Source: a virus
Taxonomy: Duplodnaviria > Heunggongvirae > Uroviricota > Caudoviricetes
Reading direction: 5' to 3' (one strand)
Virus record (IMG/VR): IMGVR_UViG_2529292910_000009
Location: 1 to 45,637 of that record
DNA: 45,637 nucleotides
The position numbers are program-made. Positions 24,001 through 27,000 of this stretch are shown here, piece by piece. Positions within the stretch are counted from its first letter, which is position 1, and every line of letters begins with the position of its first letter.

Positions 24001-27000
24001 CACACCCCAGCGGGTTGAATTCTCCGAGGCGCCACTCGCGTCACTGTATGTGCCATCAGCTCCGGTGGTGAACGCTGAACCACCACGACAGCACGGAACC
24101 AGCAGAATGCCCGCATTCGCCGGTATAAACGGCAGTCAGTTTTTTGGCGATATGCAGCCCCTGCCCCACGGTTCCGTACTGCCCCTTTGACAGGTCCGCT
24201 TTCGGATGGTTAAGACGGCTCATGTCCTGCACATCATGCAGACAATGGTCCGCCGGAATGATGTCGTTATATTTGCATGCTGCACCGCCCGGTGTCACCG
24301 TACTGCGACGCGCTAACTGTTTAATACGTGGATCAGGGCTGTCGAATGTATCCGGTAATGGCAGTCCCTCACCGTATGACATACCATTGGACTGACCAGC
24401 AAGCGCGATCACATAGTAATATTCTGGCGCAACAGAAGGCGCTGAGGTCGTCGGACGGTTGCCTGGCTCCTCTGGTGATGAGATGCTCCCCTCACTCACA
24501 ACTGGCTGGATGAACTCCGCACCATAACCAGCTGTCGAAATCAGCGCACTACCATAAGGCTGCCACCCTTCCTTCAGTTTTTGAGTTATTCGTTTCGCAA
24601 GGTCTGACGGCGACGCCGCCCTGACAACATCATAGTGTTTAAATGCCATGAATCCTCCCGGCCGGGATAATATTGTGAGTAAAATAAGGAGCGGGCTGAA
24701 GTCCGGAAGTTACAGGACAATGGCAGAAGGGAGACTACAGCCCGCAATTCGAAAAAGGTCGCGCAGTTGCGCAGAGTGATTACTATGGGGTATTATTCGC
24801 CAGCTGAAATATTACTTCACGTTTCATTGTTCATTCCTTGCCGCCCGCGTCTCCCAGCGCGGGCTTTTTTGTCCATAAGAAAGCCCCTCCGGAGAGGGGC
24901 TGGAGAGTGGCGCTATGTGCCACTAAACCCGCGTCATTCTCGTTTTGATAATCAGAGATTATACCGTCACCAGTCGCCCCTCCGCTCAGGGGGATTCACC
25001 ATGCAGTTTTTTCTAACAAATTCTCATCCGGGCAGACAACATTCAACTGACTTAATTGTGAGGTATGTAACATTCCCGTTGAACGGATACAAAAAAAGCC
25101 AGCCACCAGGGGAGGCTGGCAAACTCGTAGAGCAAAATGCTGTTACGCAAACTTCGTTACAGGGTTATCCTGCAATACTTAAAATATACAATATTTAGAA
25201 AACTAATAGTGCTATATGAGATTTTTAAGATTTTGTTATTAATTGCGGTCGTACCTTCCTTTCTGTGTACTTTCCGTATAGCTCACAGGATTCTGGGTAC
25301 AAAAAAACCCGCGCATCGGCGGGTTCGGCTGCGTGGCAATGTAACCACTCTTATCATGATATGCAGATTTTTACGATCGTAAACTATTTTTTCGCTGATA
25401 AAATACAGAGCTTCTCCCTCCCGGCAATTCACGCTCAACATACCGATCCATCTCAAGCCTCACTCCCAGCATCATCAGCATGCCTTCAACAATCCCCTCC
25501 GCTTTGTGAAGGCGTTTACCTATACAGGTGTCAGAGCACCCATGTTTCCGTGCCAGCGCCATGAACGTCTCCCCCAACACGTAGTAATCAACCAGCAAGT
25601 CATGCAGATCGCGATTGTTCCGGTAAAGGCGGGCTATGCACCCGCATATCACCATCGCATCATCGTCACAGCACTGTGGACGTGATTTTACTTTTTCGGG
25701 GATCAGTCCCTTAAATCCGGCAGCAATGGGCGACCATGTAACATCCTCATAGTTATTTACCGCCCATGCCCCCCAGCGCTCAAGAACCTGCCGGATATCA
25801 CGCATCAGTATCTTTACCCCATCCGCGATGAACCATAAGGACGCCATTGACGACGGCGTGCTTTTTCGCATCTTTATCATCAATGTATTTTCTGACTGTA
25901 GCACGATTGCAGTTCAGTATTCTGGCGACTTCTGTCTGATTTCCCCTGGTGCAGATCAGTAATTCAGGTATCGTTTGAATTTTAGCATTCATCAAATGTT
26001 CTCCAGTTCGGTGATTTTTATCCCCACTCTACCGCCAGGCACTTTCACGCCGCGAATTACGCGAATGTCATCGAATTGCTCGTCGTCGTCCGCAAATCCG
26101 GCGTGGATAAGAGAGTCGAGTAAACCTTTCAGGATGTTATCGAGGTCGCGACGGCGGGAATCTGGTGGTTCAGCAATAATTGTGATGCGAAGTCGTGATT
26201 TAGTGAAAATGTCTAATCTGAGTTGCCGGATGATTTGCTGTACGTCTTTTCGGTATTTCTGGCCTTTATCGCTGATGTAGTACTGGCTTCCCCGTCTTCG
26301 CCAGTAGGTATTCACCGTCGGCGGCCAGGGAAGCACAAACTCATATTCATTCATGACTTAATCTTCCCCTCCTTCAGCAATATCGCCTGCGTCCTGATCA
26401 CGCCTTCCAGGTGGTAAAGTCTGGCGTCGTTGTTGTCGAGAATTCGGGTGCGTCGGTCGATCTCCGCGTGGCAGTCACTACAAGCCCATGCACCGATCAG
26501 GTCGTCAGGCTTCATTCCCGTTCCGCAAATTCCAGCCATCCGGTAATGTGCCAGAACTGTCGTTTCAGGATTGCCATTGCATACGCCGTAAATCCGTACC
26601 TGGCATTCTCTGCCGCGCGCTTCTTTGCGTAGGTTTGCCATCATCTTATTCCTCGTACATTGAACTATCCGGAGTGACTATTAAATCTTGCACGACGTCT
26701 GAGCCACCGGACATCCCACAGGTGAGACGTATAATTGAAGGTTTTTACATCAGATTCGTTGGGGATTGGCCTGGGTTTATTTCGGGAGCGTTTCGTTGGA
26801 AGGTAATTGCAGTTTTCACAGACTATATCGGTAATGCTTCGTCGCTGTCGTCTCATTCATACCTCCTGTCGGTAAATCTGACACCCTGCTCCACAGCCCA
26901 GGAAGTTGTGTACTCAATCAGGCTTGCCATACGCTTCACGCTCATCTGCGCACTGCTTTCGCGGATATTGACGTATTCACCTTCAAGACCTGGCAAAACA

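Follow-up and report, generated by a model that had tools for sequence, protein, structure and literature searches.

The late-control region of the window (the whole stretch of 45,637 nucleotides that was analysed) lies on the minus strand and runs from an antiterminator gene, through a leader with two hairpins, to the first late ORF. Its features are given below in the order of late transcription; plus-signed positions count from the predicted transcription start.

25371-25805, minus strand: antiterminator Q gene, 144 aa, Q21/Q933W family (PF06530)
25356-25383, minus strand: late promoter PR′, -35 TTTACG (25383-25378), 16-nt spacer, -10 TATCAT (25361-25356)
25370-25383, no strand: perfect 14-bp palindrome TTTACGA/TCGTAAA overlapping the -35, candidate Q-binding element
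25349, minus strand: predicted PR′ start (+1, an A), 7 nt past the -10, from homology to published ends
25333-25348, minus strand: 5′ stem-loop GUGGU-N6-GCCAC (+2 to +17), from RNA folding
25343-25338, minus strand: -10-like TACATT (+7 to +12) in the loop of the 5′ stem-loop
25342-25335, minus strand: 'qut' as annotated in 933W, in the same loop and overlapping TACATT
25298-25326, minus strand: hairpin 1, promoter-proximal intrinsic terminator (+24 to about +50), stem 25326-25305, U7 25307-25301
25092-25349, minus strand: StxS_L homolog, 258 nt from PR′ to tR′, including the AT-rich body
25174-25178, minus strand: putative RNase E motif GUAUU, cut GU/AUU at +173 (from sequence and PMC7547250)
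25092-25165, minus strand: StxS_S homolog, stable 3′ fragment, an Hfq-binding sRNA by homology
25091-25120, minus strand: hairpin 2, or tR′ (+229 to +258), stem 25120-25098, U7 25097-25091
25075-25090, minus strand: empty cargo ('moron') site, from local BLAST against 933W and phi296
24871-25032, minus strand: STnc100 (RF02076)/EcOnc27 homolog, terminator 24901-24882 with a tail to 24872
24843-24870, plus strand: intrinsic terminator, predicted 3′ end of an EcOnc42-family RNA
24751-24773, minus strand: fifth, weaker hairpin followed by T5, sequence GCGCAACTGCGC, stem 24773-24760, from the consensus scan
22739-24649, minus strand: DUF1737/SASA esterase (nanS-p type), first late ORF after the leader, in three frames

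Sequence comparison puts the window at 96-97% identity to phage 933W/Sp5; with 933W, the value over the segment reaching from Q to the end of hairpin 2 is 96%. Identity to the stx-negative prophage of E. coli O104:H4 amounts to 99.9%, and to 99.25% across 6.8 kb. The pR′, qut and two terminators annotated in 933W map base-for-base onto the window, and among 80 close relatives both hairpins are found in nearly all, with variable cargo between tR′ and STnc100. The region is the late-gene control of a 933W/Stx-type lambdoid prophage without toxin genes, a type already characterised; the finding is ordinary and already known, a routine copy in an stx-negative prophage. The esterase ORF is split here by two single-base indels, near 24136 and 23697, and is intact in O104:H4. 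The Q protein matches Pfam PF06530, which Yin et al. call the Q21/Q933W family, over its full length (170 bits, E 2e-50). It is the same allele as in 933W/Sp5 (AF125520, Plunkett 1999 annotation), with 98.6% amino acid identity to 933W Q, and matches the Q21 structures 6P18/6JNX weakly.

All four hairpin/T-tract terminators of the region were recovered by a consensus scan: hairpin 1 at 25326-25305 (8 bp, then T7), hairpin 2 at 25122-25103/25120-25098 (then T7), the plus-strand terminator at 24843-24864 (8 bp, 7 GC, then T6) and the STnc100 terminator at 24901-24882 (8 bp, with the tail TTTCTTAT). Terminator-like sites number 10 in the 3 kb scanned, versus 3.2 ± 2.3 in shuffled sequences, and four of the five best fall inside the 480 bp under study. 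RNA folding gives free energies of -12.6, -16.8, -17.4 and -16.9 kcal/mol for the four hairpins and, in the same order, z-scores of -2.4, -4.1, -2.3 and -3.6. The 'possible rho-independent terminators' of 933W map to 25323-25301 and 25120-25092, which are hairpins 1 and 2 to the base. Scan and folding thus confirm the elements of the original prediction, namely two minus-strand terminators (25301-25323 and 25091-25120) and an abutting plus/minus pair (24843-24870 and 24877-24900), all four of which exceed chance expectation. The stretch between the minus-strand hairpins is AT-rich as described, with a GC fraction of 0.344 (25121-25300) versus 0.488 for the window. A fifth late-strand hairpin (24773-24760) was missing from that prediction. 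Its sequence, GCGCAACTGCGC, is kept in 933W and Sp15, and its plus strand gives TTGCGC, the -35-like hexamer that AsxR uses in 933W.

Homology with 933W stops exactly at hairpin 2. BLAST against 933W and phi296 shows that 25075-25090 lacks both the 473-bp pT/ileZ/argN/argO cassette and stx, which relatives carry at this site. Because ARAGORN finds no tRNA genes in the window, the ileZ/argN/argO cassette is truly absent and was not missed. The window differs from 933W/Sp5 in having neither the tRNA cassette nor stx after tR′; the leader directly abuts the STnc100 module. The same empty-cargo junction is present in 7 of about 73 close IMG/VR relatives.

The STnc100 homolog scores 76.8 bits in cmscan (gathering score 47, E 9e-15), as compared with 207.7 bits for the intact copy of 933W and 158.3 bits for that of phi296. 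The window copy has a 44-nt internal deletion at 24922/24923, with loss of model positions ~99-140 and disruption of the long-range helix, and does not show the complete structure across the RF02076 model. Because of this deletion the copy may be non-functional. The contiguous 44-bp deletion junction was found neither among the full-coverage matches listed for 5426 complete E. coli genomes nor in the GTDB representatives. The northern probe for EcOnc27 matches the STnc100 copy of 933W. The STnc100/PasD family (Zhu, Shabalina and Storz 2026 preprint) is described from the same neighbourhood, with genes for a Q antiterminator and an esterase beside it, and its intact copies (158-208 bits) score well above that of the window.

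In 933W, STnc100 converges on AsxR, and the plus-strand terminator of the window occupies the place of AsxR's terminator. Tree et al. 2014 (PMC4104026) described this convergent-sRNA architecture downstream of PR′. Their pairs (EcOnc27 with AsxR in Sp5, EcOnc42 in Sp15) have the same position between cargo site and esterase and the same head-to-head terminators; in the window, the antisense partner is not AsxR/AgvB and the STnc100 copy lacks 44 nt. By its sequence, the convergent terminator pair corresponds to this known site. The plus strand at 24600-24872 is 90% identical over 273 nt to the EcOnc42 locus of Sp15, whose strand and coordinates in Table S2 match the window locus only under an offset of +135. 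The plus-strand terminator would thus end an EcOnc42-like RNA of the EcOnc42/EcOnc08/EcOnc21 group, antisense to the late strand. Promoters for this RNA are weak candidates only, and the candidate starts give lengths of 68, 193 or 231 nt versus about 271 nt in the published northern blot.

The shortest of these lengths corresponds to a somewhat unlikely alternative, in which the terminator ends an anti-sRNA of about 68 nt of the AsxR/AgvB type, transcribed from TTGCGC-18-TATTAT (24767-24796), and not a long RNA of the EcOnc42 type. Layout and position are those of AsxR in 933W, the TTGCGC lies in the conserved GCGCAACTGCGC hairpin common to both, and a 101-bp unit is present, unannotated, in 981 of 5426 complete E. 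coli genomes. Against this, the Rfam models of AsxR/AgvB (RF02703/RF02702) give no match in 24500-25500 even at E ≤ 1, while AsxR of 933W scores 88 bits. The proposed promoter scores just 8/12, and the EcOnc42 Hfq peak of Sp15 maps upstream of the putative short-RNA start; the northern size is about 271 nt. AsxR/AgvB was thus rejected as the identity of the plus-strand RNA, only position and layout being common, and a long EcOnc42-like RNA is preferred. Long and short plus-strand RNAs could share one terminator, and the two readings are compatible. All weak Rfam matches in 24500-25500 (E ≤ 1) are sub-threshold. They include an anti-hemB match of the hairpin pair, taken as chance. The HnrS locus of Sp12 (EcOnc10-12) has no similarity to 24500-25450.

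On the late strand, TTTACG-16-TATCAT is the sole sigma70-like promoter between 25420 and 25080, and no second promoter-like site appears there even at the relaxed threshold of 8/12. It overlaps the Q stop codon (25373-25371), coincides at 25383-25356 with the pR′ annotated in 933W, and has the same sequence as the Sp5/Sp15 promoter, for which dRNA-seq has located the start. The palindrome over its -35 is a candidate Q-binding element. The 16-mer TTTACGATCGTAAAAA recurs downstream of the Q gene of a Morganella phage, whose Q protein, retrieved by a protein search, shares 63.5% identity; the 16-mer is absent within 1.2 kb downstream of Q in the 434 and Lambda_ev203 loci, whose Q proteins are 77-81% identical with a different C-terminus. 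A Q-based search for related loci gave only relatives with 94-100% identity, and is uninformative for conservation of the palindrome.

In Sp5/Sp15, dRNA-seq and Term-seq set the PR′ start and the 3′ end at tR′ 258 nt apart, according to Sy, Lan and Tree 2020 (PMC7547250), who also place the RNase E cut of StxS_L within GU/AUU at +173 and give 74 nt for its product. The start in the window is assigned to 25349 because the 258-nt spacing and the RNase E site at +173 fit only there: this choice puts +173 on the U of GUAUU and +258 within the U-tract that follows hairpin 2. In Sp5 of Sakai, the same count ends precisely on the final U. The coordinates of the paper were placed on the current Sakai record via presumed offsets of +142 for Sp5 and +135 for Sp15. 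Transcription from PR′ would accordingly begin at about 25349, upstream of both minus-strand hairpins; given the published geometry, both would lie downstream of PR′, with the AT-rich DNA as the body of StxS. For the leader of the window, homology is the source of all three positions: transcription start, RNase E cut and 3′ end. The expectation of a Q-dependent late leader (pR′, qut and tR′) followed by a convergent terminator pair is borne out by the homology with 933W/Sp5. The original prediction left undecided which hairpin is tR′. For close homologs the answer is published, the mapped 3′ end being that of hairpin 2; the additional terminator, nearer the promoter, is hairpin 1.

At its 5′ end the leader folds into a stem-loop. 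Across 31 distinct relatives, pairing holds in 96% of its cells, and GC, AU and GU alternate at one pair (18/8/5). Relatives read TACTAC, TAGTTC or ATAGCA at the position of TACATT; TAnnnT is not kept in all of them, and TACATT is therefore no more than a candidate pause element. The 258-nt leader has 7 substitutions relative to StxS2 of Sp5, about 15 relative to Sp15 and one relative to the O104:H4 prophage. Its StxS_S homolog differs from the Sp5 sequence at only 2 nt, both in the loop of the terminator, and has an identical seed region, and the EcOnc15 Hfq peak maps to it (25092-25165). PMC7547250 reports sizes of 74-85 nt for the short product, states that StxS in EHEC binds Hfq, activates rpoS and represses stx1B, and already notes that non-toxigenic phages also carry StxS. 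Because the 3′ fragment before the terminator is identical to that of Sp5, Hfq binding, rpoS activation and stx1B repression would be expected here as well. For near-identical phages, the ends of the RNA, its processing by RNase E and its binding to Hfq are in print; the identity, coordinates, hairpins and conservation come from the present analysis. Within the StxS region, Rfam matches to RprA (27.9 bits, gathering score 70), Qrr and VqmR are sub-threshold and were taken as chance.

Hairpin 1 is present in 102 of 113 related late promoters, versus a background of 21.6% for the permissive terminator finder used, with at least 12 different stems among them. Its conservation was assessed by folding each sequence and by counts of position against background; column covariation was dropped, as MAFFT leaves stems of unequal length out of register. 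In lineages without StxS no other terminator precedes the first ORF, and hairpin 1 is equivalent in position to the phage 21 tR′ (+3 to +50). It is not discussed in the main text of Sy et al. 2020 (PMC7547250). Because hairpin 1, with its U7, looks strong, abundant StxS would need substantial read-through. A tentative reading, to which we give slightly less than an even chance, is that hairpin 1 is the ancestral tR′ of the Q933W branch, to which the StxS body and hairpin 2 were added later as a lineage-specific module. The two would form tandem gates under Q control, the first leaky or regulated and releasing a leader RNA of about 50 nt, and the leader features would serve as loading signals. 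The features concerned are the palindrome over the -35, the stem-loop at +2 to +17 and a CAGCUUA motif, and they differ from those of phage 21.

A stricter role for hairpin 1 can be considered, in which it acts as the effective tR′, so that without Q nearly all transcription ends at about +50, StxS_S arises mostly from an internal start of its own, and hairpin 2 is chiefly an sRNA terminator and less the gate of the late operon. Hairpin 1 is canonical, with a GC core followed by U7; it is family-wide, the sole terminator in relatives without StxS, and placed like the tR′ of phage 21. The dRNA-seq of PMC7547250 called a primary TSS at the 5′ end of StxS_S, and a product of about 50 nt may be lost from standard Term-seq/RNA-seq libraries. 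This alternative is nevertheless improbable, for the same study reports that the 258-nt StxS_L builds up on RNase E inactivation and is detected from native PR′ on a plasmid, that the short form has a monophosphate 5′ end, and that StxS_L driven by PLlacO-1 gives the short form. In addition, our late-strand scan shows no promoter-like sequence before the 5′ end of StxS_S.

Least probable is the arrangement in which hairpin 1 ends the early Q transcript, the late promoter lies in the AT-rich stretch of 180 bp and hairpin 2 alone serves as the tR′ that Q antiterminates: AT-rich DNA often carries promoters, and the GC fraction here is 0.344, but no -35/-10 pair reaches 8/12 on the late strand in 25300-25120, the mapped PR′ start of Sp5/Sp15 lies 258 nt from the 3′ end and hence upstream of hairpin 1, RLM-RACE without TAP and build-up of the 258-nt form in rne-3071 identify the internal 5′ end as a processing site (both in PMC7547250), and PR′, leader and hairpin 1 are kept as a unit in more than 100 phage contigs, many without the AT-rich body. 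The late promoter, originally expected between the minus-strand hairpins, is thus found at 25383-25356, over the Q stop codon.

Our main reading, with a probability of about 0.9, is that the locus controls the late genes of a 933W/Sp5-type lambdoid prophage through a cassette read on the minus strand, made up of PR′, two tandem terminators and StxS and followed by convergent sRNAs. The sigma70 promoter PR′ (25383-25356), which overlaps the end of the Q gene, would yield a transcript from about 25349, whose leader comprises, in order, the 5′ stem-loop with the qut/-10-like element, hairpin 1, the AT-rich body and hairpin 2. In the lysogen, polymerases that pass hairpin 1 would halt at hairpin 2 and produce the 258-nt StxS_L, which RNase E would cut at GU/AUU to give the stable Hfq-binding StxS sRNA. 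Upon induction, Q is expected to load at PR′, and the Q-loaded polymerase is expected to proceed through both hairpins and the STnc100 terminator into the esterase and lysis genes. Beyond tR′, the empty cargo site is followed by the STnc100/EcOnc27 homolog facing the putative plus-strand EcOnc42-like RNA. Presumed features of this scheme are the details of Q loading, how efficiently hairpin 1 terminates and where the antisense RNA begins.

A comparison with known systems places the cassette closest to 933W/Sp5 (Stx2a) and Sp15/H-19B (Stx1), where promoter, 'qut', both hairpins and RNase E motif are at identical positions. The tR′ loop differs from that of Sp5 by 2 nt, and its tail is U7 instead of U6. 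Phage 21 (OL657228; Yin, Kaelber and Ebright 2019) likewise has a PF06530 Q, a promoter directly after Q and a terminator ending at about +50, in the annotated order -35/QBE/-10/TSS/SDPE, terminator (+3 to +50) and tRNAs; tRNA genes past the terminator are found in relatives as well. Its Q is only weakly similar (phmmer E 1e-7), and its QBE is a direct repeat, ATTGAGCA/AATGAGCA, in the -35/-10 spacer; the candidate element in the window is the palindrome TTTACGATCGTAAA. Phage 21 has its SDPE at +2 to +8, compared with +7 to +12 for the candidate in the window, and a single terminator with no second module of the StxS kind, whereas the window has two terminators. The pR′-6S RNA-tR′ unit of lambda follows the same logic, with a constitutive promoter, a terminated leader in lysogens and read-through by Q. 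By contrast, lambda Q belongs to an unrelated family (PF03589), and the single terminator is at +194. Processing of the lambda 6S RNA to an Hfq sRNA is not known.

The region governs late-gene expression and, in toxigenic relatives, Shiga toxin, and it would also make StxS, an sRNA that boosts RpoS in lysogens. For the specialist, the point of interest is that the promoter-proximal hairpin is family-wide in Q933W, yet the StxS papers, in their main text, take only the distal one as tR′. The practical value lies in correct annotation, with the promoter over the end of Q, the tandem terminators, the empty cargo site and the convergent sRNA pair.

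The minus strand of the window carries rusA, ninH and then the antiterminator gene Q (25371-25805), whose 144-residue product belongs to Pfam PF06530, the Q21/Q933W family in the naming of Yin et al. Between the end of Q and the following ORF lie 771 bases that match 312 phage records, for the most part Stx-converting phages; the top E. coli hits, at 99.9%, come from a stx-negative prophage found in the O104:H4 outbreak strains and their relatives. Phage 933W aligns to 25942-25092 without gaps at 96% identity. Mapping of the 933W annotation onto the window thus reveals that the two minus-strand hairpins of the original prediction are exactly the two annotated terminators of 933W. 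The features of the region are:

25383-25356, minus strand: putative pR′ (933W record annotation)
25342-25335, minus strand: qut (933W record annotation)
25323-25301 and 25120-25092, minus strand: two 'possible rho-independent terminators' (933W record annotation)
25326-25305, minus strand: terminator of hairpin 1, the promoter-proximal hairpin; 8 bp, then T7 (consensus scan)
25122-25103, minus strand: terminator of hairpin 2, the distal hairpin (consensus scan)
25032-24871, minus strand: match to STnc100 of Rfam (76.8 bits; gathering score 47)
24901-24882, minus strand: terminator at the end of STnc100 (consensus scan)
24843-24864, plus strand: terminator of a probable antisense RNA; 8 bp, 7 of them GC, then T6 (consensus scan)

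The consensus scan of 23500-26500 confirmed all four predicted hairpins, and yielded 10 terminator-like sites versus 3.2 ± 2.3 in shuffled sequence. The isolated folds have energies of -12.6, -16.8, -17.4 and -16.9 kcal/mol (z-scores between -2.3 and -4.1). The late strand bears a small fifth hairpin (24751-24773; GCGCAACTGCGC, then T5), situated shortly before the esterase gene and kept in 933W and in Sp15, the Stx1 phage of strain Sakai; read on the plus strand it contains TTGCGC, a -35-like hexamer present upstream of AsxR in 933W.

On the late (minus) strand from 25420 to 25080, just one sigma70-like -35/-10 pair occurs, TTTACG-16-TATCAT at 25383-25356, and no second candidate was found in this interval even with the threshold relaxed to 8/12. 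The pair, which constitutes the late promoter PR′, overlaps the Q stop codon (25373-25371). According to Sy, Lan and Tree (PMC7547250), the RNA of the Sakai Stx2a (Sp5) and Stx1 phages measures 258 nt from the PR′ start (dRNA-seq) to the terminated 3′ end (Term-seq), and RNase E cleavage within GU|AUU at +173 releases the Hfq-binding sRNA StxS as a stable piece of about 74 nt. The same study identifies the short 5′ end as a processing product, from RLM-RACE without TAP and accumulation of the 258-nt form (StxS_L) in rne-3071. In Sakai, a start 7 nt past TATCAT places +173 at a U of GUAUU and +258 at the final U of the hairpin 2 U-tract. The same geometry in the window sets +1 at 25349, GUAUU at 25178-25174 and the 3′ end near 25092, and no alternative start reconciles these three constraints together. 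The AT-rich 180 bp between the hairpins (GC of 0.344 in 25121-25300 versus 0.488 window-wide), where the late promoter had been expected, thus makes up the transcribed StxS body and holds no promoter, and both hairpins are downstream of PR′. The predicted Q-dependent late leader is retained with its hairpins, and its promoter is moved upstream of both.

The 258-nt unit differs from that of Sp5 at seven positions, and the StxS 3′ fragment is the same except for two terminator-loop bases. RNA ends, processing and Hfq binding are known from print for phages 96-97% identical; for the window, identity and layout are shown at the level of sequence. The record of phage Nil3 (AM051322, locus L003) annotates a 'tR′' at 1174-1242, equivalent to 25247-25179, inside the AT-rich StxS body and free of hairpins there; database annotations for the region are inconsistent. 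Against the RprA model of Rfam, the StxS 3′ region (25088-25204) scores 27.9 bits at E 0.73, short of the gathering score of 70 and statistically no better than chance; curiously, StxS is reported to share the rpoS seed of RprA.

The 933W homology ends at 25092. Two stx-negative phages, phi296 and TL-2011a, align across all of the region but have an extra 473-bp pT/ileZ/argN/argO cassette between 25092 and 25074; no tRNA genes were found in the window. Among close relatives this site contains stx1, tRNAs with stx2, tRNAs only, or nothing, and the exact junction of the window recurs in 7 of about 73.

Further downstream, STnc100 converges on a predicted plus-strand RNA. The intact STnc100 of 933W (207.7 bits) lies 75 nt past stx2B and converges on the opposite-strand AsxR; the EcOnc27 northern probe of Tree et al. 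matches this copy, with detected sizes of about 235/247 nt. The copy in the window lacks 44 nt at 24922/24923 that the O104:H4 prophage, 99.9% identical otherwise, retains, and TGGCAC direct repeats flank the deletion. Neither the listed full-coverage matches in 5426 complete E. coli genomes nor the GTDB representatives showed the contiguous deletion junction. The plus-strand terminator occupies the place of AsxR. The RNA body is unrelated to AsxR/AgvB, with zero model matches at E ≤ 1, and HnrS was ruled out by sequence. The region is 90% identical to the Sp15 locus, where Table S2 of Tree et al. places EcOnc42 (northern size about 271 nt) antisense to the late transcript. The StxS1 ends give a coordinate offset of +135 for Sp15; with this offset, the Hfq peak of EcOnc42 falls at roughly 24706-24790 of the plus strand, ahead of the 24843-24870 terminator. 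On these grounds, an antisense RNA of the EcOnc42 family probably has its 3′ end at 24843-24870; for its start there are only weak promoter candidates, which would give lengths of 68, 193 or 231 nt. The 101-bp unit is present but unannotated in 981 of the same 5426 E. coli genomes.

The DUF1737/SASA esterase (nanS-p type) that follows is split into three minus-strand frames (24056-24649, 23662-24003 and 22739-23665) by a 1-base insertion at about 24136 and a 1-base deletion in an A-run at about 23697, by comparison with the unbroken gene of O104:H4; a pseudogene or homopolymer sequencing errors could account for the split. Elsewhere, Rfam matches above the gathering score are the sok antitoxin RNA (30102-30276, 116.9 bits), isrK (28153-28230, 69.2) and C4 antisense RNA (28043-28127, 66.0) upstream of an ORF6N/ant-like gene, and sRNA-Xcc1 near the window start (287-375, 69.1 bits).

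Which hairpin is tR′ had been left undecided. In print it is hairpin 2 (Term-seq, Sp5/Sp15), and no discussion of hairpin 1 was found in the available text of Sy et al. (PMC7547250); hairpin 1 was assessed comparatively. It spans +24 to about +50, with a GC core and U7. The phage 21 record, whose Q is of the same family, has in order a -35, a two-part QBE in the spacer, a -10, the start, an SDPE at +2 to +8, a terminator at +3 to +50 and tRNA genes, so that hairpin 1 is the positional equivalent of the phage 21 tR′. A search of IMG/VR for the 16-mer TTTACGATCGTAAAAA (the -35 and adjacent bases) gave 113 usable oriented occurrences. A terminator-like hairpin begins at +19 to +45 in 102 of these (at +25 in 62), against a background of 21.6% of random 100-nt windows of the same contigs for this permissive finder. 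The stems comprise at least a dozen distinct sequences, each followed by a U-run. An StxS-type second terminator is present in just 34 of the 113, all adjoining a Q 80-100% identical to that of the window; in lineages devoid of it, the first ORF starts at +75 to +185 with no second terminator ahead of it. Among 80 close relatives found via Q, nearly all have both hairpins, hairpin 2 ending at +257 to +261. For the IMG/VR occurrences of the 16-mer, a Q homolog is immediately upstream in 65 cases, and 0.5-3.4 kb upstream with an intervening gene in 32 more. These displaced Q genes, in about 30% of the IMG/VR contigs with this PR′ module (L104, L108, L115, L117, L124 and about 27 others), encode proteins 60-82% identical with a different C-terminus, and the intervening gene often encodes an ORF6N/antirepressor-like protein.

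The leader displays further conserved signals. A perfect 14-bp palindrome, TTTACGATCGTAAA (25370-25383), covers the stop codon of Q and the PR′ -35 element, and is conserved beside Q proteins down to about 58-63% identity, including a Morganella phage Q (63.5%) found by protein search. We infer only that it may be a Q933W-binding element; it differs from the phage 21 QBE, which is a direct repeat. Across 31 distinct leaders, 96% of the cells of a 5-bp stem-loop at +2 to +17 (25333-25348) are paired, with one pair varying GC/AU/GU; both TACATT and the annotated qut lie in its loop. Some relatives lack the -10-like pattern of TACATT in their leaders, so this is at most a candidate pause element. 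Besides the stem-loop, late leaders of the Q family (loci L012-L131) share a CAGCUUA motif right before the terminator, of which the window has the variant CAGCCGA (25323-25331).

In the lysogen, PR′ would fire constitutively, part of the polymerases halting at hairpin 1 and the remainder at hairpin 2 to give StxS_L, which RNase E would trim to StxS; because StxS is abundant in lysogens, Q-free read-through past hairpin 1 must be more than negligible. Upon induction, Q would load at PR′, and the modified polymerase would pass both leader hairpins, the terminator of STnc100 and the small hairpin (24773-24760) to reach the esterase and lysis genes. For the window prophage, the loading of Q, the pausing and how efficiently each terminator works are inferred.

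Every element of the region already has a described counterpart, and the finding is in that sense known: PR′, qut and two terminators in the 933W annotation, StxS in Sy 2020 and the convergent sRNA pair in Tree 2014. STnc100/PasD near Q and esterase genes is described in the Zhu et al. 2026 preprint, and StxS in non-toxigenic phages was noted before by Sy 2020 (PMC7547250). What is mildly new is confined to the place of hairpin 1 in the comparison, together with the conserved leader signals of the Q933W branch. In our reading, hairpin 1 would be the ancestral late terminator of the family, and the StxS body with hairpin 2 an addition of the 933W lineage.
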